A stretch of DNA of 64,000 nt from Gammaproteobacteria bacterium (GTDB lineage: Bacteria; Pseudomonadota; Gammaproteobacteria; Eutrophobiales; Eutrophobiaceae). Location: positions 2,304,001-2,368,000 of the forward strand of contig OZ220696.1 of assembly GCA_965116495.1 (NCBI GenBank), given 5' to 3'. A model generated the notes under the pieces. It was not told the origin of the DNA. It ran no database searches and saw nothing but the letters and a program-made list of their open reading frames with translations. This document shows positions 4,600 to 28,757 of the stretch, one piece after another. How positions within the stretch are numbered: position 1 is the stretch's first letter; each line of letters opens with the position of its first letter. A program made the position numbers and the translations under genes.

Positions 4600-4617
4600 A
4601 AACCTTGATGAAAGGGC

Positions 4618-6048: not shown

Positions 6049-6153
6049 CTCGGGAACACATCTTCGCGCCCGTAGCCGTCCTTGGTCCTAAGGAACAGTC
6101 TGCCTTGTTCGCGCAACAGGTCCGATATCGAGAGAAGCCGCCACTAAAGTTTC

Positions 6154-6378: not shown

Positions 6379-6549
6379 TGTATCACATGACGCTATGCTG
6401 GTTAAAGAAAATCATCTATCCGGAAGATGGTTTCATTGCCATGAATCCTGAAACTGCCAGTCATACACTACCGGCTTCTCTGCACCGACGTATTGACTTA
6501 TCAGGTTTTTCAGCCCGTCAGGGCATTACGCCGTCGAAGTCAGGAAACA

Positions 6550-8964: not shown

Positions 8965-9241
8965 AAGGGCACCATTGCCTTTAGGCCGAGAATTATTATA
9001 GTAACAAAAATCAAAACGTCACTATCGCCGAAAATTGAATAAATTGATGCGACCTGATAGGAAAACCGCTTCAATGCCGTTTCTGGCAAGACTTATTCAA
9101 GATATGGAAAAATTGCTGCCTGTTCATTTATGTATAGAACCCCAAGGGGAGTTGTGTATAATTGCAGTTGCTTCATTTTGATCGGACAAACTGCTGTACA
9201 TCAAGGAGCTAAGATTAAGTAACCTTAAAGGGAAAATTAAA

Positions 9242-9772
9242 ATGACCGATAAACGAGAAGGCAACCTGCCGATCATCAATATTTCACTTCTCCAGCGCGA
9301 TGCCTATGTTTTGTTGGCGTTACTATTGGCAGACGAAAAAATCGCTCAATTTGATAAACTGCTTGATACAGTTGAGGAACACTTTGAAGGTTCTGTCAAT
9401 CAATTGCTTATATGGTTATCTACCGCATCCAGACAGATGCTGGAATTGTCCAAGTCCGATATCAAAGATAGCCCATGTGGTAAATTCTGGACAAATCTGG
9501 ATGCAGAACCAATGGAATTAACATTTCATAGGGCTTGTAGCACCATCATCCATGCCACAGAGATAATTCCTTACGAAACAAAAGGAGACAAATCAAAACA
9601 ATTGGGGGAGGAGAAGCAGTTTTATAAGGGTCGATTGACCATCATAGGAAAAAACAAAAAGCGTGAACAGAAAATAGAGCTTGATGGTCGGAAATATATT
9701 GACTCTGTTATAATGCTGTCAAGAATTTTCAATGGCGGAGAAACACATGCCGACAAGCAGAACTACATATAA
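9242..9772 (+). CDS. Hypothetical protein in AT-rich insert
   Basis: 176-aa ORF with ATG in visibly AT-rich DNA; no motif recognised. Confidence 0.65.
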   Translation: MTDKREGNLPIINISLLQRDAYVLLALLLADEKIAQFDKLLDTVEEHFEGSVNQLLIWLSTASRQMLELSKSDIKDSPCGKFWTNLDAEPMELTFHRACSTIIHATEIIPYETKGDKSKQLGEEKQFYKGRLTIIGKNKKREQKIELDGRKYIDSVIMLSRIFNGGETHADKQNYI

Positions 9773-9968
9773 ATACCATTTCAAATTGGGCAATAAAATT
9801 GTTCACACCGGTACTACCAACGATATTGTCCGGCGTGAATATGAGCATCAGAGGAAGCCTGGTTGGGAAAAGGGGCATATTTTTCAGATTGGCTACCGCA
9901 CAACCCGTGATGCAGCTTTAGCATGGGAAGATGAACAGCGCCGGAAAGGCAAGCCTACAGGACCTTAG
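9747..9968 (+). CDS. Small minimal GIY-YIG-like nuclease-fold protein
   Basis: GGAG RBS then ATG at 9747; TYKYHF...IVHTGTTNDIVRREYEH...AALAWE resembles the GIY-YIG Y..Y-G.T.DL.RR..H...E pattern. Confidence 0.55.
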   Translation: MPTSRTTYKYHFKLGNKIVHTGTTNDIVRREYEHQRKPGWEKGHIFQIGYRTTRDAALAWEDEQRRKGKPTGP

Positions 9969-9979
9969 CCTGGCCTCAA

Positions 9980-10021
9980 ATTGCCGCAGACCGGCGCATA
10001 ACCGGCTTTACCTGTATTGGC
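9980..10021 (-). repeat. Diverged copy of 8677-8718 (internal AEP-helicase sequence)
   Basis: attgccgcagAccggcgcataaccggcTttAcctgtATtggc versus attgccgcagGccggcgcataaccggcCttGcctgtCCtggc: 37/42 identical, same orientation. Confidence 0.85.
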
Positions 10022-10222
10022 TAAACGCGCGTCTTACTGCTTGAACCGGGAAAAACAGGCATCAATTTCCGGTTTCAGTTCTATACCTGCTTTTCGAAGC
10101 AATCCAATAGAGCCGAATAAACACCGTCGTCATAATCCATTGATGCCGTCCTTCAATCAATCCCCTTCCGATTTTATGGATGTCCCGGATTTATTCCCGG
10201 GTTGAAATCCTTCCGCTTTTGC

Positions 10223-10252
10223 ATGTACGATATACGTACATTATCCTGTACA
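10223..10252 (+). promoter_or_regulatory. YefM-YoeB operator
   Basis: Palindrome atgtacg-N5-cgtacat plus TGTACA at 10247-10252, 12 bp after CGTACA; matches the TGTACA core and spacing known for yefM operators. Confidence 0.7.
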
Positions 10253-10271
10253 ACATAAACTGGAGGTTGTT

Positions 10272-10523
10272 ATGGACGCAATCAGTTACACTGCTGCTCG
10301 GGCAAACCTGGCAAAGACGATGGAAAAAGTATGTGATGACCATACGCCCGTCATCATTACGCGCAAGCGGGAAGCGGCTGTGGTAATGCTATCCCTGGAC
10401 GATTACCAGGCCCTGGAAGAAACCGCTTACCTGCAGCGCTCCCCAGCCAATGCCAGGCGTCTGTTGGACTCCATTGCCGAACTTGAAGCCGGAAAAGGCA
10501 CGGAACGGGAACTTATTGAATGA
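10272..10523 (+). CDS. yefM: YefM antitoxin
   Basis: MDAISYTAARANLAKTMEKVCDDHTPVIITR...EETAYLQRSPANARRL. Confidence 0.95.
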   Translation: MDAISYTAARANLAKTMEKVCDDHTPVIITRKREAAVVMLSLDDYQALEETAYLQRSPANARRLLDSIAELEAGKGTERELIE

Positions 10524-10777
10524 AAACCACGTTTTCTTCCACGGCGTGGGAGAATTATCTTTACTGGCAGAAGACAGACAAAGCAACCCTGAAACGAATC
10601 AATACATTAATCAAGGCAATTCAGCGCGATCCCTTCTCAGGAATTGGAAAACCGGAATCACTGAGACATAACCTGACAGGCTATTGGTCCAGACGGATCA
10701 ATGACGAGCATAGAATCGTTTACAAGGTTGCCGATAATCACTTGTATATCGCTCAACTCAAGTACCATTACGAGTAG
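10520..10777 (+). CDS. yoeB: YoeB/Txe mRNA interferase toxin
   Basis: AWENYLYWQ, GIGKPESL, WSRRINDEHRIVY, C-terminal YHY; ATGA overlap with yefM. Confidence 0.95.
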   Translation: MKTTFSSTAWENYLYWQKTDKATLKRINTLIKAIQRDPFSGIGKPESLRHNLTGYWSRRINDEHRIVYKVADNHLYIAQLKYHYE

Positions 10778-11928
10778 TGGGAATAAATCCAGGACACCTG
10801 CCCACACCCATAAATCCCTCCGAGGAACTCCTTGGCCGGTTCTATTCGCTCGCCACCGGGGTAGGATTTGCCTTGCGCGAGTTCACCGACTACCTGGATG
10901 CGCGACAGCGGTTCCGTTACCAGGAATTTTTTGAAGTTGCGGCTGAGGCTTGCGTCTTTCCACTTGACTTCAATGAGCTGGTGAGGCTGTTTTTCCCGGG
11001 TGATGAGAAAATCGATCTCAAGGCCGTCCTTAGTCCTGAGGAACTGTAAACCAAGGTCGGCGCCGTCCACGTCCTGCGCCCGTTGCACTTCTTTCAGCAG
11101 GGCACAGGCCACCAGGTTTTCCAGCCTGGTTCCCTCGTCTCCCTGCACCATGCCGTTGTCATAAAAATAGTATTTCGGTTCTTTCAACAGTGCCCGCGCG
11201 ATGTTTTTATGGTAAGGGACCAGCTTGAAGATCACGTACAGGTCTTCCAGCAGCTTCAGCCAATGGCGGATGGTATTGGGACTTTTTTGCAGGTCGCGGG
11301 CAAGCGAGTTGGCGGAAACGGGACTGCCGACCCGGGTCCGCAGTAATTCAATGAGGGTCTCTATGGATTGAATATCCCTGACTGCCGTCAGTGTCAGGAG
11401 TTCTTCTTTCAGAATGAGGTCCACGTGTGAACGTTTCCAACGATTGTAGTAAGCTCGAGTGCCCTTGAGGAAAGGTTCCGGAAAGCCGCCTACCGTCATC
11501 AGGCGGGTAAAAATCTCATCCCTGCCCAAATCGGTTTGCGCCAATGCCTCCTTAAGGTCCACCGGGTGCAGGTGAAACTGAAAATGTCTGCCGGCCAGCG
11601 AATCGCCCGTCTTGCGGAAAGCCTCAAGCCTGGCGCTGCCGGTGACCAGCAGCGCCGGAGGCATGCCCTCAACGTCGTAGATACCCTTCAACCAGGCCTT
11701 CCATTGATCCATCTTGTGCAGCTCATCAAAAATCACCAGCGCCTTTTGCCGGTCCCAGCTTTTTTCCATAAGCAGCAGACGGTGTTCTGCCAGGTCATAA
11801 TTGATGTATTGGTAATCCGGGCACAACATCCTGGACAAGGTGGTTTTGCCGCACTGGCGCGGCCCGGTGAGCAGCAGGATTTTCCTGCCCAGTTCTTCTG
11901 ACAGTGCGGGGGTAAGATATCTTTCCAC
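10768..11928 (-). CDS. AAA+ ATPase (AAA_14) with DUF4143
   Basis: GPRQCGKT, FDELH, TGSA, LAGR, GGFPE, KYYFYDNG, EIDF...IEVK. Confidence 0.88.
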   Translation of the reverse strand: MERYLTPALSEELGRKILLLTGPRQCGKTTLSRMLCPDYQYINYDLAEHRLLLMEKSWDRQKALVIFDELHKMDQWKAWLKGIYDVEGMPPALLVTGSARLEAFRKTGDSLAGRHFQFHLHPVDLKEALAQTDLGRDEIFTRLMTVGGFPEPFLKGTRAYYNRWKRSHVDLILKEELLTLTAVRDIQSIETLIELLRTRVGSPVSANSLARDLQKSPNTIRHWLKLLEDLYVIFKLVPYHKNIARALLKEPKYYFYDNGMVQGDEGTRLENLVACALLKEVQRAQDVDGADLGLQFLRTKDGLEIDFLITREKQPHQLIEVKWKDASLSRNFKKFLVTEPLSRIQVVGELAQGKSYPGGERIEPAKEFLGGIYGCGQVSWIYSHYS

Positions 11929-13575: not shown

Positions 13576-13827
13576 ATGAAAAGTGGCGACGACATGCTAA
13601 GACAACTCGTTGATAAATCCGCTGCTGACGCGGCGTTCAGGCAACAACTTCTCTCTGATCCCAAGACTGCCATAACCGCTGAGTTGGGCATTACCATGCC
13701 CGAATCGATGAATGTTGTGGTACATGAAAGCGACATGCAAACTGTTCACGTTGCTTTGCCGCCGGATCCGAATATCACCGAGGAACAACTCGAAGCCGTT
13801 TCGGCCGGCCTTTGCTGCTGCTGGTAA
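13576..13827 (+). CDS. srpE: NHLP-leader (proteusin) RiPP precursor, core LCCCW; SrpE-like
   Basis: Nitrile-hydratase-like leader (DAAFRQQLLSDPK...VVVHE...HVALPP), double-glycine-type site ITEEQLEAVSAG, core LCCCW. The core matches my recall of the sponge-microbiome srp precursor. Confidence 0.92.
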   Translation: MKSGDDMLRQLVDKSAADAAFRQQLLSDPKTAITAELGITMPESMNVVVHESDMQTVHVALPPDPNITEEQLEAVSAGLCCCW

Positions 13828-14162: not shown

Positions 14163-15281
14163 TTACTGGTAAACCGCCCCGGAAAGCACCATAAATACAT
14201 AGGCCTTGGCTTTTCGAAGCTGATTGTCTGATATGACCAGCTTCACATGGTGAATGCCCCGCAGCATAATATAACGCCCGGACTTCGCAAAAAGCGGTGT
14301 CGGTTTTGAGACCCAGCCGGCTAGCGCCTTGATCTTGTCGGAAAACACAATATCCTCATGGTCCAGGGCTTCCAGGAAGGGTGCCCAATCGGTCAAACCG
14401 TCAAGCCAATAGCGCGAATCCTTGGTATATCTCTGCTTTACAATGAGTGTGAGACCAAGCGTCGGACCAATTCCATCCTCCTGCACGTCAATATTCAATC
14501 CAATCCTGACAATGTTCACGCGGTCTGTGAAGCGTGAAATCACTGAATCGACGGCTGTGATCTGACCGGGCCAACCCGTATCTTCCAGGTATCGGGCTAC
14601 CTCCTGCTTCGATTTGAAGCCCATGACAGCGAGGCGAATTGCCCGAGAGCGGGACGGAAATACTCCAAACGAGTCCATGCGCGTATCTTCCGGCTGCGCA
14701 AGGTAAGCTTGTTGGAGGTACTTCCGTTCTGCGTCGTTAATCTCCCAGCCTACGCAGGAAGCGAGTGCGTCACTCACCATAACGACGTCATCTTCCTGAC
14801 CGTTGGCGCCGGTAATCGGGCGTTCGCCGGGCCGCAAGAACATTCCGGGGAAAGAACCTTGTCCCTCCCGCGCAGATCCTATGTCATATTCCAGCATAAG
14901 TTTCTGACCGACAATTTCACGCAGGGGTGAGTTTTCGGTTTCCATTTGCTCGCAGGCCCGCACAATTGCGCCGGCGGTCTCATCTGTGTTATCGGTCCGT
15001 GCGCACTCCCGGAAAAACTCTGCCGACCTGGTTCCACCGGCCAGGGAAGCGCCGAAATCCGCCTCCGGTTTGGGCGAATGCAACGGCAGTTCGAAGCCGA
15101 ATGGCAAAGCGGCCATTGTAATCGGAAGTTTTCCGGCGCAGTCGAGTATGCATTCCCATTCAGATGCCCCGATAAGAACCGGCGAAATCCTGTCCCGAAA
15201 GTGCCCAAGCAAATCACCCATGGTGCCGCCTTCCTCGGCGAGACGTTCCTGGGTAAGAATCACAGCTTCGTCAATATTCAT
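14163..15281 (-). CDS. Putative RiPP prenyltransferase (ABBA-barrel-like); function inferred
   Basis: 372 aa with GFELPL..ADF, MLEYD, F.SR..IRL, YL...GW, LNIDV..GP.LG, HHVKLV..KAKAY. Alternating alpha/beta pattern; ATGA overlap with the terpene-cyclase-like gene. Confidence 0.5.
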   Translation of the reverse strand: MNIDEAVILTQERLAEEGGTMGDLLGHFRDRISPVLIGASEWECILDCAGKLPITMAALPFGFELPLHSPKPEADFGASLAGGTRSAEFFRECARTDNTDETAGAIVRACEQMETENSPLREIVGQKLMLEYDIGSAREGQGSFPGMFLRPGERPITGANGQEDDVVMVSDALASCVGWEINDAERKYLQQAYLAQPEDTRMDSFGVFPSRSRAIRLAVMGFKSKQEVARYLEDTGWPGQITAVDSVISRFTDRVNIVRIGLNIDVQEDGIGPTLGLTLIVKQRYTKDSRYWLDGLTDWAPFLEALDHEDIVFSDKIKALAGWVSKPTPLFAKSGRYIMLRGIHHVKLVISDNQLRKAKAYVFMVLSGAVYQ

Positions 15282-16588
15282 ATGGTCTTCTCCAGCAGGA
15301 ATTCAACCAGACGCTCCAGGGCTTCGATGCAAAATGCGGAAGTCACCGATTCGGAACCATGCCCAATCTGCCCTACCAGACCCCACTTCAACTCCTGATC
15401 GCCAAACGCGAGAAACTCCGGCCAACTGCCGTCCTCACGTTGCGAGTTCAGGAACCTTTTCACCTGGTGTTCTGCGTCGATGCTTTGCAGGCTTCCAATA
15501 TTGTAGAGAGCAGACACTGCCTGGGCAGTCTGGAGGATATTGCCGAATTCCCCCTTCCCGTCGCGCAGGCCGAGGATACCATCCGCAAGCGCCGGGCGTA
15601 ACCGGTCAAGAGCGGACGGCACGCGCAGCAGGGCGCGGGTGATTGCATAGTAGATTGAGATCGAATCAGGATACCACTTGGACGTTCCATCCAGGCTGTC
15701 TTCAATGATCAAACCTTCCAGCCATTGCCGGGCTTCCCTGGTTTCCGGACGCTCACCGAGATAGGCAATGACATTCGCATTAACCACAGGATCGGCTTCG
15801 ATACGAAAAGTAGATACTACATCAGGTTCATCATCCGCGAGTATCCAGGTCTGGAAAAGACCTTTTTCGTCGCGATTTGCCAGAATTCCCGGGACATTCC
15901 TTTCCAGCAATATCCAGGGGTGATTCCCGATGACAAGTGAGCAGACTGTGGAACTATCGAGGTCCTGCGGCAGATGTCGGTAGTAGCGCCATAATCCGGG
16001 ATATTCCATGGTATCGACAAGATACGCCCTGGTGGTGGCACAAATGGCTTTAGCCTTCGGTTCATCACAGCCTTCCAGGGCAAGTACACAGAATGCCGAA
16101 ATAAACGGGGGTCTTTCGAAATGCCTTGGGATGTTCGGGTCGGCTATATTGAAACGGATGCAGTGCCAGGCCCCGTTTTCATCGATCCCGGATTCCAGGA
16201 AATCGAGACCGCGACGGATGCTTTCCCTGCATGCATCGGCAAGCGTCCCGGGCGTGGCGTTGGATAACAAGGCGCCTGCGCCACCCGGTTCGGGAGGGCG
16301 GACAGGCGGCGCCGGATCATAAAGTGTCTTGCGCAGGAACTCGAGTGATTGTGAGCCGGTTCTCGCCTCCTGCCGTTCAGCCGCGCTGAATTTGCTGCGC
16401 GGCGGAAGCGCCAGATGCGCAACGGAAACGGTATCTTCGTGCACGCGAATCTCATGATCTTCGTCCAAGGTCACACCAAGTTCCTCTTCGATGGTTTCTT
16501 TGGGTTTCTCAAGCAAACGATTGCGAAGATCATCGTCTTCGACGGCTCTTGATATGAGGTAATTAATTGTGTGAACAGGATACTTCAC
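15278..16588 (-). CDS. NHLP-leader domain fused to class II terpene cyclase-like (prenyltransferase/squalene oxidase repeat) domain
   Basis: Residues ~1-78 mimic the precursor leader (EDDDLRNRLLEKPKETIEEELG..IRVHED..AHLALPP). Then GLDFL..IDENGAW, GLWRYY..LPQDLDSST (DxDD position), DPVVNANV, SQREDGSW (QW motif), GSESVTSAFC. Confidence 0.75.
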   Translation of the reverse strand: MKYPVHTINYLISRAVEDDDLRNRLLEKPKETIEEELGVTLDEDHEIRVHEDTVSVAHLALPPRSKFSAAERQEARTGSQSLEFLRKTLYDPAPPVRPPEPGGAGALLSNATPGTLADACRESIRRGLDFLESGIDENGAWHCIRFNIADPNIPRHFERPPFISAFCVLALEGCDEPKAKAICATTRAYLVDTMEYPGLWRYYRHLPQDLDSSTVCSLVIGNHPWILLERNVPGILANRDEKGLFQTWILADDEPDVVSTFRIEADPVVNANVIAYLGERPETREARQWLEGLIIEDSLDGTSKWYPDSISIYYAITRALLRVPSALDRLRPALADGILGLRDGKGEFGNILQTAQAVSALYNIGSLQSIDAEHQVKRFLNSQREDGSWPEFLAFGDQELKWGLVGQIGHGSESVTSAFCIEALERLVEFLLEKTI

Positions 16589-16595
16589 TTCCGCT

Positions 16596-19544
16596 TCAGG
16601 CGACCTGCCTCTTTACCAGTTCTTTGAATACTCCTTCCTCCTCCATGAGTTCGTTGAAGGATCCGCTCTGCACAACTTTTCCGGCCTGCATCACAAAGAT
16701 TCGATCAGCCTGTTGCAATGAGGACAGGCGGTGGGCGATAACGATCCGGGTCGAGGTGAGGAGCGCCAGGTTCTGCATGACCTCGGCCTGGTTTTCGTTA
16801 TCGAGCCAGTTGGTTGCCTCGTCAAGCAGCATGACCCGCGGGCTGGCGAGCAGTGAACGGGCGATGGTGACGCGCTGGCTCTCGCCACCCGAAAGGACGG
16901 CGCCGCTGGACCCGACCATGGTCATCATGCCCATGGGCATCGCCTTGATTTCCTTTTCTATTCCGGCGGCACGGGCCGTCTGCCACACTTCCTCTGTTGT
17001 CGTCGGCTCGTGGTGCGCGACGATATTGTCCCAAACATCCTGGGGATGGAGACGCACTGACTGCGGCACCGAGCCAACTTTCCGGCGCACTTGCTTCAGG
17101 TTCAGGTGCCTCAGGTCACGCCCGTCATAATAAACCGCGCCGGCAGTTGGCGAATCGATGCCGAGGGCAAGCCGGAACAAGGTACTCTTGCCGGCGCCGG
17201 ACTCGCCGGCGATCGCGATAAATTCGCCGGGTCGCGCGCGAATAGTGACATCGTCGAGGATCAACGGGCCGTCGGGATCGTAGCGAAAGGAAATACGGTC
17301 GAACAGGACTTCGCCGCCCAGACGTTCAACCGGCTCACCTTCAACGGCTGCTTCAGGAACTGTGGCGAGCAGCGGGCGCATCTGGTCGAACGCCGGCAGC
17401 ATGGCGGCAATAGCGCCGAAGGACTCGCCAAGGCGGGCGATTGCGGACTGGAAAGCGATGAAGACAACGTAAACGACGAGAAAATCGCCGACAGGAACGT
17501 TGCGGTCACCCACCGCGGCCACTGCGAAAAGCAATGCCCCGCCGGCGAGAAAGGGGAGCGCGGCAGCGAATGCCCGCGAGTGCCCCTCAAGTGCGCCCAG
17601 TTCGATTTCTGCGCGTTTCTGTTCGCGATAATCCCGGGCCCAGATGGCGAATGCCGACCCTTCCGCATTTTCCACACGCAGCTTGGCGATGCCTCCCACG
17701 ATCTGGAACAGCCGGCCGGATACACGACGTACAGCGCTGATCATCCGCCCGTACGGTGCAACCTGGCGCAACCCAATGGCGACGGTGACCAGCAGGGAAA
17801 CCAGGCTGAAGCCAAGGGCGATGACCCCGAGGGTGGCATCGTAGAAGAAGATGACGCCAAAAACCGGCAACAGGAAAATGATCGACAGCAGGCTGTCGGC
17901 GATGACTCCCTGCAAGCCGTCGCGAAGATTCTGGAATGTCATCCCCGACATGGCCAGGTCGCCGGCCGGATAGCGGTGCAGAATGCTTGACGGTAGGCGC
18001 ATGAGGCGGTCCCAGAAGGCAGCTTCGACCCTTGATGCCGAACGCCCCTCGAGCCGCATCAGCGCCGATCCCTGCAGCAGGTGCAGCAGTGCGCCGAGCA
18101 GGCCGAACGCCGCCAACGTCACGGCCACGGCATACAGCGCGCCGGCGCTTCCCCCCCCGCCCCCGATATGATTCGCAACGAAACCAAGCGCAACTGCCGG
18201 CAGCAGTTTGACCAGGCCGCCCGGAAGCCCGGCCAGCACCAGCCGCAGTAGGTCCGCGGCCGTTCCTTGCATGGCGATCCCCAGCAGGTCTGCCGGTTTT
18301 ACGGGTGCCGACGGCAATGGCCGGTAGAACACCCAGGCTTCGTCCTTCAGCGCCTCAGCACGAGCCGCCGTAACCCGAACGCTGCGCTTGGTGACCGGAT
18401 CAACTTCCCGGTAGCGTCCGAACATTCCCGGTATCAGTGCGACCGGCTGGTCGTCCCCGGCGCGGAATGCCAGTAGTGCGTTGCTGTCACTGCGCCACCA
18501 GTTGCCCGCGGCCTCGAAGCGCACGCGCCGGGCGCGTACCCCTGACGAATCAAGCACGTCTACGAGGCGGATCGGTGAATCCGAAGGTCGGGAGCGCGCT
18601 GGAATCCTGAAATCGATGCCTTCATGACGGCCGACGATTTGCAAGGCATCCGCCAGCACCGTGTCCTCGACGCTGGCCTCCCGGTCGATCGGCAGGTCAT
18701 AGATATTGAAAAGCCGCTGCCGGGCAGCTTGTTCGGCCGTGCGGCGGCTGGTTGTCCGCTCGCGCTCGAGATTCGCATCATCGACCACGGCCAGTCGGCG
18801 ATTAAGGCGTTCCAGGTTAAAGGCAAGCGCGTGAAAGGAGGCGAGCGCCGGCAGCAGCATGCCTTGCTGGGCCAGTGTTTCGGTTGATTTGCCGGAAACT
18901 GTCGCCTCGTCGAACAAGGTGAGCCAGTTCGTCCGCGTCAGTGGTATCAACGCTTCGCGCGAGCCGCCTGTCTCGGCAAGTTGCGCCGGGTCGACCATAT
19001 CCATGAACAGGCTTGCTCCGAGGGACGGTTCGGACACCCATACCACGCCGCGTCGCACGGACAGCGTACAAGGGCCCAGTGACTGCGTCAGACCGGGTTC
19101 GGCCAGCGCAGTCGGTCGCGGCAGGTGGCTGACGAAACGCGAAAGTGTGTCAGTCATGTCGGTGAGCCAGGTATCGGCCTGTTGCGCCAGTTCTGCCGGA
19201 TGAACCTCGGACAGCAGGGATGCCGGCAGCCGTTTCAGAAGGGTGCCCGGCAACCCCTTGGCGATCAGGCTGAGCGTGGTGACTTTGCCATTGTCGTCCT
19301 GTTCGTCCGCTACGACACCCGGCAACAACCTGCCCGATTCGCAACGCAGCAGGTGCTGCGGCGCCGCCTGCTCTACCCCGTCCCTGAATTCGACCAGGAA
19401 CAGATCGACGGCACCCTGGTCAATGAACCAGACATTGTCCGCATCGTCGAGCGTTACCGGCAGGTTGCCGGCGCAAGGCACGGATGTGCCGGAGTGGGCG
19501 GCAAGCCGGCTTATTGATGCGTGTTCCGGCATGGCGTCCTGCAT
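16596..19544 (-). CDS. NHLP bacteriocin system ABC transporter permease/ATPase
   Basis: N-terminal cNMP-like region, membrane domain, GESGAGKS, LSGGESQR, LLDEAT; companion of the peptidase-ABC. Confidence 0.9.
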   Translation of the reverse strand: MQDAMPEHASISRLAAHSGTSVPCAGNLPVTLDDADNVWFIDQGAVDLFLVEFRDGVEQAAPQHLLRCESGRLLPGVVADEQDDNGKVTTLSLIAKGLPGTLLKRLPASLLSEVHPAELAQQADTWLTDMTDTLSRFVSHLPRPTALAEPGLTQSLGPCTLSVRRGVVWVSEPSLGASLFMDMVDPAQLAETGGSREALIPLTRTNWLTLFDEATVSGKSTETLAQQGMLLPALASFHALAFNLERLNRRLAVVDDANLERERTTSRRTAEQAARQRLFNIYDLPIDREASVEDTVLADALQIVGRHEGIDFRIPARSRPSDSPIRLVDVLDSSGVRARRVRFEAAGNWWRSDSNALLAFRAGDDQPVALIPGMFGRYREVDPVTKRSVRVTAARAEALKDEAWVFYRPLPSAPVKPADLLGIAMQGTAADLLRLVLAGLPGGLVKLLPAVALGFVANHIGGGGGSAGALYAVAVTLAAFGLLGALLHLLQGSALMRLEGRSASRVEAAFWDRLMRLPSSILHRYPAGDLAMSGMTFQNLRDGLQGVIADSLLSIIFLLPVFGVIFFYDATLGVIALGFSLVSLLVTVAIGLRQVAPYGRMISAVRRVSGRLFQIVGGIAKLRVENAEGSAFAIWARDYREQKRAEIELGALEGHSRAFAAALPFLAGGALLFAVAAVGDRNVPVGDFLVVYVVFIAFQSAIARLGESFGAIAAMLPAFDQMRPLLATVPEAAVEGEPVERLGGEVLFDRISFRYDPDGPLILDDVTIRARPGEFIAIAGESGAGKSTLFRLALGIDSPTAGAVYYDGRDLRHLNLKQVRRKVGSVPQSVRLHPQDVWDNIVAHHEPTTTEEVWQTARAAGIEKEIKAMPMGMMTMVGSSGAVLSGGESQRVTIARSLLASPRVMLLDEATNWLDNENQAEVMQNLALLTSTRIVIAHRLSSLQQADRIFVMQAGKVVQSGSFNELMEEEGVFKELVKRQVA

Positions 19545-21754
19545 CAGCCTGATTTGACCAGTTTGTAATACATGCCGGCCTGGTCCGCAATCAACTCGTC
19601 GTGGGTGCCGCGCTGCACTTCGGCGCCCTTGTCGAGTACTATGATCTCATCACAATCCCGCACCGTGCTCAGCCGGTGCGCCACGATCAGGCAGGTGACA
19701 CCGCGACGCCGTAAGGCATCATCCACATATTCCTCCGTGGCGGCATCGAGTGCGCTGGTCGCCTCGTCCAGAATGAGCACTGTCGGATTGCCCACCAGCC
19801 CGCGGGCGATTTCCAGCCGTTGTCGCTGGCCGCCGCTGAAATTCGCCCCGCCTTCCTCGACGAGGGTCGCGTATCCATGCGGCCTGATCAGGATTTCCTC
19901 ATGGATGCAGGCATCCCGTGTTGCGGCAATGATGACTTCATCCGGAACGGCCGGGTTCCACAAGGTGATATTGTCTCGCACGGACGCGGAAAACAGCACG
20001 GCCTCCTGGTCCACCATGGAAATGGACCGCCGCAGTACTTCCTCGGGGATCTCATCCCGCGGATGGCCATCTAGCAGTATTTCACCAGACCATGGCTGAC
20101 TGATTCCCGAAACGAGACGCGCCAGGGTCGACTTGCCGGAACCGCTTGGACCGACCACGGCAACCCGCTGCCCCGGTTTGATCACGAGGTTGAAGTCCTT
20201 GATCAAGGGCGGTCGGCTCTTGTTGTAACCGAAGGTGACGTTGCGCAATTCGAGACTGCCCGCAAGCTGTAGCCGGCCGTTGAACGTGGGGATTGCCTGC
20301 GCTTCCGGACTGCGGCGGCTGAACACGGGGTCTTCAGCGGTCCTGGAGATGTCATCCAGCCGTTGCAAATCGGTTTCGAGCGCCTGGCGTTTGTCGGCGA
20401 ACTCCAGAAACCGCCCAACCGGCGCCAGAAACATCTCTGCCAGTATGTAGAACCCGACCAGCGCCCCCAGGGTCATTGCTCCGGTCATGACCAGGCTCCC
20501 CCCAAACCCCAGGATTGCCGCGGCGCGAAATGCCGCGATCAGGCCGGGAAGCGCGCTATTGACGGCGCCCAGTTCGGAGTAGCGTTGGCGCGCATGAAGT
20601 TCGCTTGCCTGCTGGCCGCTCCAGCGCGAAAAAAAACGATCGTCCGACCCTGTCATGCGCAGGTTATCCGCATGACTCAACATCTGCATACCAACGCCGA
20701 TCAGCAATCCCTGCTCGCGCCTCATTGCCTGGCTTCGAACTTCCCTGAGCGCGCTCAGGAAGCGGGCCAGCACTCCGTGCAGGAGAGCCAGCAACAGCAC
20801 GATCAGCGTTAGCAGGACATCGTAGGCCAACATCGCGACAAGCAACACTGCGCTCATGGCCATGTCTACAATGAGCACAAGAAACTGCTCCGTCAGGTTT
20901 TTCGCGATGCGATCGATGGACGAGACCCGGTCGGTGAGGTCGCCGGCCAGCCTGTGTTCAAAAAACTCCACCGGCAGCCGCAGCAGCCGCGACAGGCCCC
21001 GGTTGTAGCCGATCACCGAAACCCGGACCGCGAGCCGCTTGAGGAAACGGTGCTTGAGCAAGGTCAGGACGTATACCAGGATGCCGCCGCCAATCAAGGC
21101 GGCCACCAATCCGCCCCAGGGTCCGTGGTTTTCCAGAACGTCGTCTACGAAAACACCGAGAGTTGCGGGAACGACAAGCGCCAGCAACGTCAACATGAGG
21201 CCACAGGCAATCACCCCGGTAAGCACGCCCCACGATTCGGCGAGCAAGGCGCCCAGTTGCCTGACTAGGTTTGGCCGGTCACCGCCGGGCTTGAAATCGG
21301 GACCGCACTTGAAGCGAAGCATAATCCCGCTGTAGCCCTTGGTAAACTCTTCTGCGCTAACCCTGCGTTTCCCTGTGGCAGGGTCATTCAGGTAGAAACT
21401 TTGGCCATCGAACCCTTCGAGCACAACGAAATGGCTGAATTGCCAGAATAAAATCAGCGGAAGCTCCACCCGTTTCAGCTGATCGGCGCGCAGGCTGAGC
21501 CCTTTGCATTCAAGACCATAGTACCTGGCGGCGCGCAGGATGCTTGCCGCACTGCTGCCGTCACGGCTCACTTCACATTTATCGCGTAATTCAGTCAACG
21601 GCGCCCAGCGCCCGAAATAAGCCAGGACGATCCCGAGACAGGCGGCGCCACATTCCGACGCATGCATCTGCAACAGAACCGGTGTGTTGACCTTCTTTTT
21701 CAAAACGTCCGAAGACGCCTTATCCCTGGCTCCCTTGGGGGCGCTCGATGGCAT
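19544..21754 (-). CDS. NHLP export ABC transporter with C39 peptidase domain
   Basis: QMHASECGAACL, HFVV, NDPA (C39 Cys-His-Asp), GPSGSGKS, FSGGQRQR. Confidence 0.93.
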   Translation of the reverse strand: MPSSAPKGARDKASSDVLKKKVNTPVLLQMHASECGAACLGIVLAYFGRWAPLTELRDKCEVSRDGSSAASILRAARYYGLECKGLSLRADQLKRVELPLILFWQFSHFVVLEGFDGQSFYLNDPATGKRRVSAEEFTKGYSGIMLRFKCGPDFKPGGDRPNLVRQLGALLAESWGVLTGVIACGLMLTLLALVVPATLGVFVDDVLENHGPWGGLVAALIGGGILVYVLTLLKHRFLKRLAVRVSVIGYNRGLSRLLRLPVEFFEHRLAGDLTDRVSSIDRIAKNLTEQFLVLIVDMAMSAVLLVAMLAYDVLLTLIVLLLALLHGVLARFLSALREVRSQAMRREQGLLIGVGMQMLSHADNLRMTGSDDRFFSRWSGQQASELHARQRYSELGAVNSALPGLIAAFRAAAILGFGGSLVMTGAMTLGALVGFYILAEMFLAPVGRFLEFADKRQALETDLQRLDDISRTAEDPVFSRRSPEAQAIPTFNGRLQLAGSLELRNVTFGYNKSRPPLIKDFNLVIKPGQRVAVVGPSGSGKSTLARLVSGISQPWSGEILLDGHPRDEIPEEVLRRSISMVDQEAVLFSASVRDNITLWNPAVPDEVIIAATRDACIHEEILIRPHGYATLVEEGGANFSGGQRQRLEIARGLVGNPTVLILDEATSALDAATEEYVDDALRRRGVTCLIVAHRLSTVRDCDEIIVLDKGAEVQRGTHDELIADQAGMYYKLVKSG

Positions 21755-22591: not shown

Positions 22592-24865
22592 TCACGCAAT
22601 TACAGGGACGGGATTCAGTTCAGCCTCCCCGGTGGGGCAATCCCGCCAGCCCATCTCAACCGGTACGTCATATAGGCGTCCCGGTGCGAAGCGTTCCCAG
22701 AAGTGACGCAGGCCCGGCACGATCACGCGCGCCACGGGCATACCGATGTCAGGCCGGGTCTGGTCGAGCACCAACAATTCCATCCCCCTCACTTCGACCA
22801 ACCCACGGCACCATTCCACATCGTCTCTCAGGTCTTCCGTATCCGGAACCGAATAATCGGAACTCTGGCTCAACCTGGCATCGCCTGCAGGCGCGAGATG
22901 GGGGTGGTCGGCCAGTTTGCCGTTCTTCCACCACCACAGACACATCGGATCATCGACCCCGTACCCGCTTTGAGCATTGCCCGGGCGAGGGACCCAGGTG
23001 AGGCACTGGTTCAATTCACACACGGCCCGCAGCGCCGCAATCCGGGGGTCGGCGTGTGCGCCTGCGCCATAGATGATGTCTTCGGCCACGCCATCGTTGC
23101 TGCGGGACAGTGCAACAAAGGCAGGAATTCCAAGGTCGCCGGTAAGGTCCAGCAGCCACATTTCGCGATTGTATTGATGATAATAACCTGGGGCAGATGC
23201 CAGGTACTCGTCAGCAAAGCTATCCAGGTCCACTCCGGGCCTTTGCAGCCGGTTGTACCACCAGATTGCGACGGCATCGCGTTCGACCAGTTCAAAAAAC
23301 CCCTGCAGAACAGCTTCTTCCAGGGTGTTCCCGGCTGCACAGCCGTTGGAGTCGGACCAAAGCCCCGAGGTTCCCCGCTGCTCCGGAGTCATTCCGTAGA
23401 GGATGGCTGTCGGTAACCAGCATTGCCGGTCCCGGGTGAGCGACCATACCGGAGACCAGTCCAGTTCATGCTCCGGGTCGAAGCGCGCCGGAACGACATT
23501 ATACGGGTGGCCGCGTGCGTTGATCTCTTGCGCATGGTCCAGTTGCCGGTCGCTGAACAACTGGACGTCGTTCGGGTGGATCGCCTCTCCATCCGCCGCT
23601 CCGGAAAAATCCGCCAGGCGCCTGCGGCAACGGATTTCATCACCGTGGAAAGCGCCGGAATAGCGCTCGACCGCTTCGCACAGCGCACTGACCTCGGATT
23701 GCTCCGCGCTGCTGCCCTTACCTGCACTCTTGCTGCGCAGGCTGCGCCGCAATGAGCTCAGGTTCTTGATTCTCAAGGCAAGATTGCTGCCCGCCCAATG
23801 TACATGCAGCCAGGAGTCTGTTCCGGGAGTTGTGCGTGAAACCCAACTGACCACTCCACTCACCGGACTGACCAGGTGCCGGTACTTTTCAAGCGTCTCC
23901 GCAGGTGTAGCCGCCCGCACTCCGCCGCTGTTGCGAAACTGTTTCGGGCTCGCCTGCAATCGCACCGGCGTCGCCGGCCGATCAGTTTTATAGAGTTCCT
24001 CGTTTCCGCAGACCGGGCATTGCGGACGGCGCATGACCCGGTGATGTTCACTTTTCATGCCGACAACATCCAGTGTGATCGCATGGTCATGCAACGGCGC
24101 CGCATCCCCAAGGACAAACCACCTGGCGATCTCAATGGCAACAGTTCCGCTGACGACATCCAATGCCAGGGGTTCGGCTACGTTCGGACGAAACGCGGCC
24201 GCCTCGCCACAGTGATTTCGCACAAAGGAATGGACCTCCTGGTGGTTTCGAATACGGTAGGAAAGGCAGGCCCAACACGGACTTTTCTGCGCAGGCCGGA
24301 ACACAGGGCCAAACAGCGGTCGTAATCCTGCAGGCCGGACCAGCACCCATGGGATGCCCGATTCCAGGTGCTCCCGGTTGACGGCGGCAAACTCATCATC
24401 AAGATAGTCGGAACCTGCGTAAATGGACAGGGACGGGCGGTTTGTACCGACTGTAATACCCATGCCCTCAAGCCGTGTCGCGAGACGGCCGTCGTCACCC
24501 TGGATTACTACCTGCGCTTCCTGCAATCGCTCTTCAACCTGGCGCGGGGATGCACCCTGCGAGGACCAGAATGCCGCCCTGCCCCGTTCCATGTCATAAT
24601 CGCCGGATACGGTGTATCCCCTGGATTCCAGGAAAGTCAGGGCTTTGCGGACATCCGTCTCCGGATGCACCCCGTCTAGCGCATCAACAATACTTTCCCG
24701 GGAACGGCAACCGTCAAGCAACGGCAGGAGATCCCCATATACCTGCCCATGCAGGAGCGTGTTGAATGTTTCGGAAACCAGGAGCACCTGCCCGGCGCCG
24801 ATAGAGCGGTGCTCAAGGTGCGGCGCAAGCACCGGCCGTTCAATCTGGTGCGGATTAACAGCCAA
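22592..24865 (-). CDS. srpC: Fused E1-like/YcaO cyclodehydratase (TOMM C-D fusion), SrpC-like
   Basis: N-terminal RRE-like region, GPVF..PCWACL, RRPQCPVCG, YcaO motifs SAGKG, EAVERYS, SNGCAAG, ELVERD, RAVCELNQ, RVIVPGL, Pro-rich C-terminus NPVPVIA. Confidence 0.92.
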   Translation of the reverse strand: MAVNPHQIERPVLAPHLEHRSIGAGQVLLVSETFNTLLHGQVYGDLLPLLDGCRSRESIVDALDGVHPETDVRKALTFLESRGYTVSGDYDMERGRAAFWSSQGASPRQVEERLQEAQVVIQGDDGRLATRLEGMGITVGTNRPSLSIYAGSDYLDDEFAAVNREHLESGIPWVLVRPAGLRPLFGPVFRPAQKSPCWACLSYRIRNHQEVHSFVRNHCGEAAAFRPNVAEPLALDVVSGTVAIEIARWFVLGDAAPLHDHAITLDVVGMKSEHHRVMRRPQCPVCGNEELYKTDRPATPVRLQASPKQFRNSGGVRAATPAETLEKYRHLVSPVSGVVSWVSRTTPGTDSWLHVHWAGSNLALRIKNLSSLRRSLRSKSAGKGSSAEQSEVSALCEAVERYSGAFHGDEIRCRRRLADFSGAADGEAIHPNDVQLFSDRQLDHAQEINARGHPYNVVPARFDPEHELDWSPVWSLTRDRQCWLPTAILYGMTPEQRGTSGLWSDSNGCAAGNTLEEAVLQGFFELVERDAVAIWWYNRLQRPGVDLDSFADEYLASAPGYYHQYNREMWLLDLTGDLGIPAFVALSRSNDGVAEDIIYGAGAHADPRIAALRAVCELNQCLTWVPRPGNAQSGYGVDDPMCLWWWKNGKLADHPHLAPAGDARLSQSSDYSVPDTEDLRDDVEWCRGLVEVRGMELLVLDQTRPDIGMPVARVIVPGLRHFWERFAPGRLYDVPVEMGWRDCPTGEAELNPVPVIA

Positions 24866-25367: not shown

Positions 25368-26312
25368 ATGAGCAATTCAGCCGACAAGTGGTTATACTAT
25401 GGTGACCATCAGGACACCCCAACCTTGAACACCACTCGCGAAATACCTCTTTCCGAGCATGAACGCTCGGTAATTGAACACTACGACAAAATGACCAGGG
25501 TGTTCTATCTCCAGTGGAGTTCCGAGCATTTTCATTTCGGTGTATTCAAGCCCGGGGAACGCCCCAGGCACAACGAGACTCCGAAAGAATCGGACGGACA
25601 TGCAAGAGCACTGGAGCGCATGGTGGAAGTCATAGTTGCCCCAGCCGGGATTGAGGGACACCATCATGTGGTGGACGCCGGGTGCGGAGTGGGCGGAACT
25701 GCCTTTCACCTGGGCAGGACGCGGGACTGCAAGGTCACGGGCGTGAACCTGAGCAAGACGCAACTGGAGATTGCCAGAAGTAAGGCAGTTAATGCCGGCC
25801 TGGGTGATCGGATAGACTTTAAGTACGCGAACTGTTCCCGGAGTCTGCCGTTCGCAGATGGCTCCGTGGACGTGGTTGTCAATATCGAAAGCGCCCGTCA
25901 CTACAGTGACCGAAGAACATTTCTCCACGAGGTATACAGGATCCTGAAACCGGGAGGAAGCATTGTGGCTTCAGACTGGGTGGTGCATGACGTAATACCG
26001 GACAGCCAGCACAAACGTTACATTCAACCGTTATGCGAGGACTGGATGCTGTATAACCTGGAGTCCCAGTCCTCGTACACCCGGTTGCTGCAGGAAGCGG
26101 GTCTGGAAGTGATTGAATTTGAGGGATTCAACGGAATGGAGTTTGACAACCTGCATCTCCTCACAAACACCTACCAGTCCCTGGGACTGCTGCGAACCGG
26201 TTACATGAAGTCGCCTGTTTTCGCCAAACTGATGACTCAGCTGGAAAGATTGTGTGTTGCCTGGCGACACAGTTACCTGGGCATCAAACGCTACTGCGCC
26301 GTGAAAGGTTAG
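25368..26312 (+). CDS. Class I SAM methyltransferase, sterol C24/tocopherol/RebM-like
   Basis: HYD...W..HFHFG, VVDAGCGVGG, VTGVNLS..QL, LPFADGSVD, ESARHY, EVYRILKPGG. Confidence 0.85.
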   Translation: MSNSADKWLYYGDHQDTPTLNTTREIPLSEHERSVIEHYDKMTRVFYLQWSSEHFHFGVFKPGERPRHNETPKESDGHARALERMVEVIVAPAGIEGHHHVVDAGCGVGGTAFHLGRTRDCKVTGVNLSKTQLEIARSKAVNAGLGDRIDFKYANCSRSLPFADGSVDVVVNIESARHYSDRRTFLHEVYRILKPGGSIVASDWVVHDVIPDSQHKRYIQPLCEDWMLYNLESQSSYTRLLQEAGLEVIEFEGFNGMEFDNLHLLTNTYQSLGLLRTGYMKSPVFAKLMTQLERLCVAWRHSYLGIKRYCAVKG

Positions 26313-26339: not shown

Positions 26340-28757
26340 TCAGGCATTGAAGAGTGCGTCGATGTCGGTAGCGGCGCGTGTTGCCGTTACTTTAATCGCG
26401 GCGCTCAGTGCATCGAAGTCGTCTGTTCCGCAGCTTCTGGCAATGACTGTCCTGGCCATCGGCCAGGTGGCATTATCCACGTTGTTATCTTCTCCCAGCA
26501 AGCGCAGGATGCCGCGCAGGTTGCGCCACATTCTTGCCGCCTCAGCCAACCGTTGCGCGCAATCGTCAGGTATCACCTCACCCTCGCCGGCGCTCTGGAA
26601 TACGGAAACCGTACCTGCGGCAATAACCTCCGGCGCCGTTGCAGCATGGGTCACAGTCAGATATGCGGCAGCGCGTTCTACCTCCCGGAGACCGCCGCGC
26701 ATATTCTCGAATGATTGCAGTCCGGCCTCCGGCGTGCCCTCCCCTGCCTGACGCAATTCATTCAGCAACGCATCACGAGCGGCGCCATTGGCCAGGATTT
26801 CAAGGCGCGTATCCTCAAACCGTTTTCCCAGCCCGGCATCCCCTGATGTAAAAACACAGCGCGACCGTAAGAGTTCCAGCAACTCTCCTGTTGAGGAGTT
26901 GCTGTAATGGTGTTCCGAAAAGTCAGCGAGAGAACGGACAATTGTCTCAGCCCTGCCCGGCAACATCGGCTGCAACAGCAGGTTGTCCCGTGACAGGGCG
27001 CGCAACGCGTCGAGAGAGCGCTCGCTCAATGTCCTGTAATAATCGGGTGAGCCACTGCCGTCATAAAGGAACATGATGCCAAGCCCGGCGCCCAGCGTCG
27101 CTTCTCCACTTGCAATCTCTCCCAGAACCACTGCCGCCACACCGCCTTCGAGCCGCCGCTGGGTAAAATCCTCCACCGCAGCCGAGAGAACACCGGCGAT
27201 CGAGGCCTCAGCAATGTTGGACAGCGCCGTCCCCGCTTCAACCGGTGACAGGTTGCCGCGCAATGTGTGCATGGCAACCTGCAGGACCTTGTCGTTCGAC
27301 CAGTTGCGCATGATCTCTACCGCATCTTTCGTGTCCTGCACCGGGATATCTGCAACCTGCTCCTTCATTTCTTCAGCAGTGAATTCCAACGTCCAGTACA
27401 CGCGCGTCAGACCGCGTCGAGCAATTAATTCAAACTCGGGACTCGGCCCGAATCCGTCCGGCAGGTCAAGATCGGTGAATTCCCTGTCCTGAAGGATGTC
27501 GAGCAACGCCGGGGTACGGTTTATCCATTCGGAAAGCCGTGGCGATGCTGCCATGATCGCGGAAATTGTATCGAACATATCCGGACGCGCGTCGAATGCA
27601 GGGCTGTCGTAAACGTTCCAGTCCTTGACCTCCGGATAATAACGCTGCCTCCACTTGTCGACCAACGGGTCCATCGTCTCGAACCAGCGGCGGGGGGACA
27701 TCGCCAGGCCGCCCATTTTGCCGTAGGGCCCGGGCAGTTGCGGCGATTGATCCTCACCCCAGTGCTGTAACAGCGGATAAGGCCGGCTTGCAGCGGCATG
27801 GTGGTCGGCATGGCGCTGCGCGTTGTAATAGATCCAGTTGAAAAACCTGTAGTCGCTGCTCCAGGAATGTTGCGGCTGGGGTCGCTCGAAGCGGCCGTTG
27901 GGAAGGCGGATACGCCGTAATCCGTAATGCTGGACATAGTTGATGATCTTCATTGACAGGACCGAACTGGCGCTGAACATCAGGAATGCCAGGATTCCCC
28001 AGATACCGCCGAACCAGTATCCGAGGGCATACCAGAACGTAACCATGAGGAAATAACGCCAGAACGGATTGGTGTAATGCCAGACCGGGAGGTGGCGGCG
28101 CGCCAGCCTGTCGCGCTCGAAACGCCAGGCTACGACGAGACTGTTCGCCACGTCCCGGGGGAAATATTCCCAAAAGCTCTGCCCCTTGCGCGCCGAGCCG
28201 AGATCTGCAGGCGTGGCGACCAGGGGGTGATGTATATAGACATGCTCCGTGGCGTAGTGCGGGTAGGTGACCGAAGCCAGCAGGAACTCGCCGAACCTGC
28301 GCTCCCATTCATAGCGCTTATGTACCAGCTCATGACCGATAATGAACACCATCTGGGACGCCATGCCGAGAGCAAATATCATCAGCACGGCCTCCCACAC
28401 GGCCAGGTGGCCGCCAATAAAAATCTGCCAGAGTACGAATACGAGGACCACCGGCCACAGTACGGCCCACATCCATACAGCCAGGTTGTATACGTACAAC
28501 TGGCTGTCACGGGTACCCCACGGATCCATGTTGCGTTCTTCCAGGCCTAAATGGAGATCGAGCCTGTTCTCAAGCCAGACAAACAGGAACGGCCCCATGA
28601 TCCACCAGCCCCCGTAAAGCGCTGCACAAATCACCAACGGGAAAATCAACAGGAGCAGGTAATGCGGGAGCGCATTCAGGACCGACGGCTGGACAAACTC
28701 CTGCCCGCCGACGGTTTCGGCGCTCGTGCCACCAGGGTCCGCGCTATACTCTGCCAT
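26340..28757 (-). CDS. AlkB-type membrane diiron monooxygenase/desaturase fused to a degenerate GlnE-like nucleotidyltransferase domain
   Basis: All AlkB His boxes present (GHELVH, EHVYIHH, NYVQHYG, QRHADHH). The C-terminal ~420 aa carry GlnE-like motifs (LSNIAEA, VVLGEIASGE...IMFLYD, RGGLREVE, LAEAARMWRNL..ILRL). Confidence 0.85.
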   Translation of the reverse strand: MAEYSADPGGTSAETVGGQEFVQPSVLNALPHYLLLLIFPLVICAALYGGWWIMGPFLFVWLENRLDLHLGLEERNMDPWGTRDSQLYVYNLAVWMWAVLWPVVLVFVLWQIFIGGHLAVWEAVLMIFALGMASQMVFIIGHELVHKRYEWERRFGEFLLASVTYPHYATEHVYIHHPLVATPADLGSARKGQSFWEYFPRDVANSLVVAWRFERDRLARRHLPVWHYTNPFWRYFLMVTFWYALGYWFGGIWGILAFLMFSASSVLSMKIINYVQHYGLRRIRLPNGRFERPQPQHSWSSDYRFFNWIYYNAQRHADHHAAASRPYPLLQHWGEDQSPQLPGPYGKMGGLAMSPRRWFETMDPLVDKWRQRYYPEVKDWNVYDSPAFDARPDMFDTISAIMAASPRLSEWINRTPALLDILQDREFTDLDLPDGFGPSPEFELIARRGLTRVYWTLEFTAEEMKEQVADIPVQDTKDAVEIMRNWSNDKVLQVAMHTLRGNLSPVEAGTALSNIAEASIAGVLSAAVEDFTQRRLEGGVAAVVLGEIASGEATLGAGLGIMFLYDGSGSPDYYRTLSERSLDALRALSRDNLLLQPMLPGRAETIVRSLADFSEHHYSNSSTGELLELLRSRCVFTSGDAGLGKRFEDTRLEILANGAARDALLNELRQAGEGTPEAGLQSFENMRGGLREVERAAAYLTVTHAATAPEVIAAGTVSVFQSAGEGEVIPDDCAQRLAEAARMWRNLRGILRLLGEDNNVDNATWPMARTVIARSCGTDDFDALSAAIKVTATRAATDIDALFNA

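Follow-up and report, generated by a model that had tools for sequence, protein, structure and literature searches.

The srp cluster of sponge symbionts (PMC10286304, 10.1101/2023.06.09.544420, PMC9426513) has been reported as common to many phyla of sponge bacteria, with a highly transcribed precursor gene (10.1101/2023.06.09.544420). The helical bundle of the leader peptide of nitrile hydratase-like type (NHLP) resembles borosin domains (PMC10858898). Leucines at positions −12 and −7, the L(X)4L signal, are required by the YcaO enzyme MprC (PMC12455567), by SrpI (PMC10858898), and by the prenyltransferase MppC (PMC12715784). C39 peptidase domains require hydrophobic residues at −4, −7, and −12, and LahT150 leaves leaders without them uncut (PMC10885120). 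In other peptides that are made by the ribosome and then modified post-translationally (RiPPs), the combined chemistry of a prenyltransferase and a cyclase is already known, as is an enzyme-borne leader-type domain in the Type V borosins; NctPC, for example, attaches a geranylgeranyl chain to Trp before cyclising it (review PMC13290415). Here we describe a gene of a gammaproteobacterial srp cluster whose product joins an NHLP leader-like domain to a class II terpene cyclase domain. It lies in a stretch of 64,000 nucleotides of the Eutrophobiaceae assembly GCA_965116495.1 (contig OZ220696.1, positions 2,304,001 to 2,368,000), which is referred to below as the window.

An NHLP-leader homologue at the N-terminus of a class II cyclase domain

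The N-terminal domain of the fusion protein is a genuine and conserved NHLP-leader homologue. By BLASTP, residues 1–78 align without a gap with the leader of the cluster's own precursor, with 24 of 78 positions identical (pairwise E = 5e-13). The Smith–Waterman score of the domain against the precursor is 116; two sets of 2000 shuffles gave maxima of 51 and 52, and none of the 4000 reached 116. A tblastn search of the whole genome with the precursor returned only two matches, the precursor itself and the fused domain. The hidden Markov model (HMM) for NHLP leaders, TIGR03793, matches residues 10–66 (E = 8.2e-10, 38.4 bits), and residues 1–104 taken alone score 42.1 bits (E = 6e-11); both scores are under the curated cut-off of 50.9 bits, and the true precursor scores 66.2 bits. 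A sequence-only reading of this DNA had proposed leader homology for residues ~1–78 on the strength of motifs shared with the precursor. The motifs are present, and the alignment, the shuffles, and the model bear the homology out, although the HMM check of the N-terminus that it had called for falls short of the family cut-off.

The AlphaFold model of the fusion, built from 105 sequences, has a predicted local distance difference test (pLDDT) of 86.4 and a predicted template-modelling score (pTM) of 0.89, with pLDDT 58–78 at residues 71–110. Helices at residues 8–17, 19–27, and 29–37, with pLDDT of about 90, agree with the three-helix nucleus of NHLP leaders, and the domain also matches the sequence of the MprE7 structure 8tb1 (E = 0.022). 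The region of the two antiparallel strands of the NHLP fold retains its sequence pattern; DSSP gives no strand at residues 38–68 of the model. Nitrile hydratase subunit identity was considered and rejected, since only the leader-like stretch matches, and far under the cut-off.

The class II cyclase domain predicted to follow the leader was found by sequence as well as by fold. Residues 205–425 match drimenol synthase (AsDMS, 9mhs) with E = 1.9e-8, placing DLDSS opposite DLDTT and D211 opposite the general acid D333, the residue changed in the D333N mutant entry; the D333N enzyme is inactive (PMC9128629). In the VIA structure comparison, the model superimposes on 9mhs_B with Z = 31.4 and a root-mean-square deviation (rmsd) of 2.4 over 282 residues, and on MstE (6sbb) with Z = 27.4. 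All ten top matches are of the terpene-cyclase type, although one is titled merely as an Actinoplanes protein, with Z from 31.4 to 21.8, and the next fold family begins at 18.6. Foldseek likewise matches the model to class II cyclases, AsDMS and MstE among them, with E = 2e-13. DLDS occurs in 105 of 105 aligned homologues; by alignment, then, the general-acid Asp of a DxD(D/T)-type motif is present, with Ser at the fourth position.

Distribution, selection, and altered recognition signals

All 80 of the genome loci analysed, which were the best of 111, carry the fusion in the same frame, with 59–90% identity. According to record names, they represent at least nine phylum-level groups, and the taxa named are Gamma-, Alpha-, and Deltaproteobacteria, Gemmatimonadota, Acidobacteria, Nitrospirales, Nitrospinota, Opitutales, Latescibacterota, and Chloroflexota. 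Among the best 120 protein matches, 116 carry the fusion with a coverage of at least 97%, and the remaining 4 begin at an internal Met. Eight of 22 other genomes of the window's genus carry the full fusion. A one-off fusion, a frameshift, or an assembly artefact is ruled out by the common frame in all 80 loci together with a contig from run X3, possibly the source sample, that spans 15900–16823 with 0 differences.

Within 10-kb flanks of the 80 loci, where short contigs make the counts lower bounds, we found a prenyltransferase-like gene in 70, a precursor in 67, YcaO in 67, a C39-type ABC transporter in 69, a desaturase-like fusion in 54, and a halogenase open reading frame (ORF) in 53. The best 150 representatives at 50% clustering include 121 with a near-full cyclase domain, only 4 of which bear the leader. 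When 10 fused sequences were added for a FastTree phylogeny (midpoint root, long branches), the fused cyclases formed one clade, with SH-like support of 100, inside leaderless cyclases of ~300–340 aa.

The ratio of nonsynonymous to synonymous substitution rates (dN/dS), calculated from 554 non-independent pairs of 74 coding sequences, is 0.28 for residues 9–63, 0.30 for residues 64–78, 0.16 for residues 79–97, 0.70 for residues 98–115, and 0.19 for the cyclase. The leader-like domain has therefore been maintained under purifying selection, and a drifting relic is ruled out. A Pro-rich linker had been placed directly after the terminal Gly. A variable linker does exist, but at residues 98–115, and residues 79–97 are instead the most constrained part of the N-terminus. 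These residues were also considered as a true core peptide and rejected, as Cys and Trp are absent from them and a helix is predicted there; S81 and T88 are conserved, and self-modification was judged unlikely. In total, 358 residues follow Gly-78 instead of a short modifiable core.

The recognition signals of the fused domain differ from those of a working leader. In the alignment of 105 homologues, −7 is Arg (R72) and −1 is Gly (G78) in every sequence; −2 is Thr in 87, giving TG, and AG or GG is found in 12. Position −12 is F, L, or Y in 96 of 105, and −4 is Ala. In 51 loci where SrpE and the fused copy could be paired, −7 is Leu in 42 of the SrpE leaders and Arg in all 51 fused copies. The cleavage motif had been called degenerate; it is indeed altered, but in a fixed manner. 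By alignment, the first-helix residues of MprE7 in contact with the RiPP recognition element (RRE), 7, 10, 11, 14, and 17, correspond to positions 6, 9, 10, 13, and 16 of the fused domain, and these are variable in the fused copy: at position 10 no residue exceeds 11 of 45, whereas SrpE has Gln in 39 of 51.

Origin, predicted chemistry, and role of the domain

Where did the domain come from? Scanning metagenomes with 17 leaderless relatives produced 80 loci, of which 20 have the fusion and several have unfused clusters. In each of L085, L094, and L099, a leaderless cyclase is accompanied by a prenyltransferase homologue and two separate Trp-core NHLP precursors, and L165 is similar. L139 has the same gene order as the window: 6 nt separate the stop of an NHLP-like ORF from a leaderless cyclase, and a prenyltransferase-like ORF (by eye) comes next; loss of that stop would produce the window's architecture. 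In mean identity, the fused leaders are closer to the sister-cluster precursors (44%) than to SrpE (34%; 15 fused, 5 sister, and 12 SrpE rows). The description of the domain as the enzyme's own built-in leader thus holds insofar as it is an NHLP homologue, although it resembles the sister-cluster precursors more than the SrpE of its own cluster. From these sequences, read-through of a non-SrpE precursor gene is the likely origin. In the mechanism that we propose, read-through from a precursor gene into a leaderless cyclase downstream of it would quite probably have given rise to the fusion, and the changes at −7 and −2 would then have ended cutting by C39 and engagement by YcaO and the halogenase. 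In the sister cluster (L085, 6922–9567; L094, L099, and L121), the cores of the tandem precursors contain Trp and lack Cys, and NHLP-type ABC transporters lie alongside; in L085 the cluster adjoins a CRISPR-like repeat array and a cas1-like gene (by eye).

The start of the 372-aa protein encoded next to the fusion gene overlaps the cyclase stop by 4 nt. It has no Pfam or NCBIfam match, and an Atlas lead below 0.9 stands beside its predicted-fold match. Its model has a pLDDT of 90.8, and the Foldseek matches listed are all ABBA prenyltransferases (best E = 1.7e-6). A profile of this protein matches the N-terminal half of prenyltransferase–cyclase proteins (P0354, E = 1e-11; P0346, E = 2e-5; more weakly P0385 and P0307) that carry a related cyclase at the C-terminus, and the two activities, joined in distant relatives only, are two overlapping ORFs in the window. 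This arrangement resembles NctPC, and Trp geranylgeranylation with subsequent cyclisation is the expected chemistry. The fusion cyclase is very probably active, with Asp-211 protonating a terminal alkene. The ABBA-fold neighbour would, with somewhat better than even odds, prenylate the SrpE core, most likely at Trp, and the fusion enzyme would then cyclise the chain as NctPC does. The fusion suggests that the product of the cluster is a peptide–terpenoid hybrid. Other related cyclases are fused to DUF2332 (P0320 and P0344), with a similar-looking ORF by eye near L165 6032–7060, or to UbiA, P450, PhyH, sulfotransferase, or acyltransferase domains.

What is the function of a leader on an enzyme? 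We suggest, with a probability of about 0.45, that a precursor gene was captured and now serves in cis, as a leader bound to the cyclase; this cyclase likely acts on a prenyl chain that its ABBA-fold neighbour adds, and cyclises it. By occupying a putative leader-binding surface of its own enzyme, the domain may keep the cyclase structured and active with no need to hold the SrpE leader, a step to which we give slightly less than even odds. A rough calculation gives a pTM of 0.71–0.75 if the first 116 residues are misplaced by 15–30 Å and 0.88 if they are misplaced by 5 Å. With a whole-chain pTM of 0.89, the leader domain and the helix after the terminal Gly are therefore predicted to pack on their own cyclase. 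A cis-bound leader is plausible because enzymes reportedly place hydrophobic side chains inside the nucleus of leaders of this kind (PMC12715784, PMC12537861).

Several observations weigh against this interpretation. The predicted cis-docking rests on one pTM value of one model, with neither error map nor coordinates, and leader binding by the leaderless cyclases of the family is an assumption. The prenyltransferase fold match is distant, with TM-scores of 0.4–0.5 and rmsd of 7–10. The DxDS motif occurs in 6 of the 121 representatives, versus 68 of 121 for DLDD, the commonest. The fusion of L164 (52% identical) sits with a precursor whose core, LCCC, has no Trp, and therefore the prenyl acceptor is not always Trp; this fusion adjoins a prenyltransferase homologue, and no second precursor was found within the contig stretch 12000–42701. 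As to origin, the identity ranges overlap (0.36–0.53 for sister precursors and 0.25–0.47 for SrpE), and a leader tree (38 rows, 78 columns) puts the sister precursors with SrpE at 85/43 rather than with the fused domain.

Alternatively, in line with the heterodimer that the sequence-only reading had suggested, the domesticated precursor could be a substrate-capture module, which pairs with the SrpE leader in a two-unit structure like that of the nitrile hydratase alpha subunit, or hands the leader over, in a leader–leader recognition that needs no RRE. The alpha subunit has two separate leader matches (1v29_A, 69–115 and 140–195), and NHLP-Burk pairs, fused in some genomes, have been taken as a hint of a two-chain structure (Haft 2010, PMC2887384). 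Moreover, the residues in common with SrpE are concentrated in the beta region (H50, E51, H58, L61, P62, and P63), where the monomer model has no strand, although they may be mere fold or lineage residues. We nevertheless regard pairing as unlikely. MprE7-TH1, the one NHLP precursor with a solved structure, was monomeric by small-angle X-ray scattering at three concentrations, with both strands within one chain (PMC10858898), and the fused domain is less like SrpE than like the sister precursors. If it were true, the capture module would sit on the enzyme that gives a thiazoline-rich, often brominated peptide with a polycyclic terpenoid, from the most widely shared cryptic peptide of the sponge microbiome.

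It is also unlikely that the domain acts as a leader mimic that docks the cyclase onto the prenyltransferase, rebuilding in trans the fusion of the relatives. There is a precedent in MppC, an ABBA prenyltransferase to which a Nif11-type leader binds through its structured nucleus (PMC12715784), and both the fused relatives and the 4-nt gene overlap fit such a docking. However, MppC also requires the L(X)4L leucines that are altered here, and a mimic would compete with SrpE for one site. Furthermore, the sister clusters keep both enzymes separate without any fused leader, and the two genes are often non-adjacent in related loci.

We consider it improbable that the protein is no active peptide–terpene cyclase at all but a scaffold or pseudo-enzyme, or that it and the prenyltransferase make a separate small meroterpenoid, with the leader only as a folding aid. 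The departure of DxDS from the common DxDD and the Trp-less core of one paralogous cluster fit such a protein, and the closest solved relatives use farnesyl diphosphate or prenylated benzoate rather than peptides. On the other hand, the general-acid Asp is invariant, drimenol synthase functions with DxDT, and several distinct types of cluster combine a prenyltransferase, a cyclase, and an NHLP precursor.

The sequence-only reading had offered two further roles, docking onto the RRE of YcaO and a tag for export, and the fixed Arg at −7 together with the changed −2 makes both of them unlikely. Docking onto YcaO would assemble a maturation complex. The frequent YcaO neighbours (67 of 80 loci) and the contacts of NHLP nuclei with the RRE in MprC (PMC12455567) agree with it, but MprC requires L(X)4L and specific residues of the first helix, and with Arg-72 invariant and the contact positions variable we hold it to be very unlikely. 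Least credible of all is a cleavable export tag with which the C39 ABC transporter would secrete the cyclase: the nearby transporter does keep its catalytic Cys motif, and the domain does end in an invariant Gly, with AG or GG in some homologues, but the cyclase would be expected to find its substrates in the cytoplasm, constraint on the segment after the Gly is as strong as on the enzyme core, and Arg at −7 and the prevalent Thr at −2 conflict with the hydrophobic residues that C39 domains require, at −12 and −7 in particular (PMC10885120).

The srp cluster and comparison with known systems

The features of the window are collected in Table 1. The window has both an NHLP precursor with an LCCCW core and YcaO, and LCCCW is found in 66 of 71 precursor matches from the 80 loci; on the basis of this core, the locus is identified as the published srp cluster of sponge symbionts. 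The C39 transporter lies two genes upstream of the fusion gene. In a metatranscriptome sharing 6% of words, contigs span the precursor and the cyclase gene's 3′ part, but these contigs come from relatives, and therefore no expression is shown for the fusion gene of the window. Second precursor cores (MCCCGI, WCCCGN, WCCCGQ, and LCCC) were seen in L056 (19664), L067 (20371), L069 (18603), L073 (18420), and L164 (17780–18052), ~52% identical to SrpE.

Table 1. Positions of the fusion gene, its parts, and neighbouring genes in the window.
Feature	Position	Strand	Basis
NHLP-leader/class II terpene cyclase fusion gene, 436 aa	15278..16588	-	GTG start; HMM, sequence and fold matches
Residues 1–78, NHLP leader-like domain, colinear with precursor leader	16355..16588	-	HMM, BLASTP, shuffles, model
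Residues 67–78, changed L(X)4L and double-Gly stretch (−12 F/L/Y, −7 R, −4 A, −2 mostly T, −1 G)	16355..16390	-	Alignment of homologues
Residues 79–97, conserved helix and PAP motif where a core would sit; no Cys or Trp	16298..16354	-	dN/dS 0.16, model
Residues 98–115, variable linker	16244..16297	-	dN/dS 0.70; mean top-residue frequency 0.49
Residues 116–431, monodomain class II terpene cyclase (beta domain) fold	15296..16243	-	VIA, Foldseek
D209-L-D211-S212 acid motif	15953..15964	-	D211 opposite D333 of drimenol synthase
372-aa orphan, predicted ABBA-fold aromatic prenyltransferase	14163..15281	-	Predicted fold
SrpE-type NHLP precursor, 83 aa (252 bp), core LCCCW	13576..13827	+	HMM; srp description in 10.1101/2023.06.09.544420
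NHLP export ABC transporter without peptidase	16596..19544	-	TIGR03797, E 2e-201, 671 bits (cut-off 709)
C39 peptidase/ABC transporter	19544..21754	-	TIGR03796 above cut-off; PF03412
Short HlyD-like protein, 183 aa	21756..22307	-	TIGR03794, N-terminal part only, E 1e-8
YcaO cyclodehydratase, winged-helix and E1-like parts (SrpC type)	22592..24865	-	PF02624, PF21084, TIGR03604, TIGR03882
Flavin halogenase gene remnant (SrpI type), 98 aa	24855..25151	-	N- and C-terminal ends joined in frame, middle gone
S-adenosylmethionine-dependent methyltransferase-like ORF	25368..26312	+	Sequence inspection, tblastn paralogues
Membrane desaturase/hydroxylase-like domain fused to GlnE-like domain	26340..28757	-	PF00487, PF03710

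In the halogenase remnant, ~73 N-terminal residues are 89% identical to the 424-aa homologue of L006 and are joined in frame to the C-terminal end. Short forms are found in L003 (76 aa) and L004 (128 aa) too, and because of these short halogenases the window lineage probably makes a non-brominated product. The methyltransferase-like gene adjoining the remnant is near 7 of 80 related loci, and the copy in the paralogous cluster of L164 is 61% identical. The desaturase/alkane-hydroxylase-like and GlnE-like nucleotidyltransferase fusion is a candidate oxidase for the terpenoid part. The short form of the HlyD-like protein, compared with a model of 421 positions, is usual in related loci, and the L164 copy has ~297 aa from stop to stop.

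Directly upstream of the cluster (29049–37369, minus strand) are two tandem pairs of RND transporter and adaptor genes, and in L167, too, the cluster is followed by an RND gene. On the other side, downstream of metK (4330–11928), are a HipA-like gene with an upstream helix-turn-helix gene, an AEP-TOTE primase–helicase, an AAA-DUF4143 ATPase, and two small ORFs that are YefM/YoeB-like by eye, which points to a possible defence or mobile island next to the cluster.

The conserved prenyltransferase-like protein and class II cyclase predict a much larger, lipophilic srp product. This prediction tells chemists which mass and polarity to seek and with which two genes existing SrpE co-expression systems should be supplemented. 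The fusion also bears on a question raised for folded NHLP nuclei, namely what purpose they serve (PMC10858898, PMC12537861): here the nucleus is under selection on an enzyme after loss of the cleavage and L(X)4L signals, and the leaderless relatives are natural controls. A literature search by titles and abstract starts found no description of an NHLP–cyclase fusion or of srp prenylation, although the supplements of the original srp and NctPC papers may already annotate the gene. The supplements of PMC10858898 gave no match for srpA, srpD, srpH, or cyclase, and the available part of PMC12615548 names only SrpI and SrpE.

How does the locus compare with systems already described? Like the published srp cluster (Nguyen et al., JACS 2021, via PMC10286304, PMC10858898, PMC9426513, and 10.1101/2023.06.09.544420), it has a 252-bp NHLP precursor, the LCCCW core, YcaO, and a spread over many phyla. 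A flavin halogenase is present in most related loci, as in srp, but in the window it is an internally deleted remnant. The available portions of the srp literature cover thiazoline formation and bromination and mention no cyclase, prenyltransferase, or leader–enzyme fusion. As in NctPC and ChrPC (Hubrich et al., Chem 2024, via PMC13290415), an ABBA-fold prenyltransferase is combined with an MstE-like class II cyclase; unlike in NctPC and ChrPC, the two are separate proteins, the cyclase has an NHLP domain, and thiazoline modification of the core comes in addition.

The domain resembles NHLP leaders (TIGR03793; SrpE, MprE7 8TB1, and DprE2) in its length, its three-helix nucleus, its Pro-rich boundary, and a final Gly in register. 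It differs from them in falling under the HMM cut-off, in having (F/L/Y)(X)4R in place of L(X)4L and mostly Thr at −2, and in being followed by an enzyme rather than a short core. In its fold (Z = 31.4 and 27.4) and in having the acid motif's middle Asp, the cyclase agrees with AsDMS (9mhs, 9m7d) and MstE (6sbb), but with 15–20% identity, no HAD domain, and an N-terminal leader-like domain, and the substrates of AsDMS and MstE are small molecules. Engineered leader–enzyme 'ConFusion' constructs are a further analogue of the fusion. In the Type V split borosins (RceM/RceA; 10.1101/2021.12.24.474128), too, a precursor-type helical leader domain is predicted on an enzyme. There, however, the enzyme is a methyltransferase and the domain is of another family, and the RceA leader is short, whereas the SrpE leader is full, so that here both partners carry the domain.

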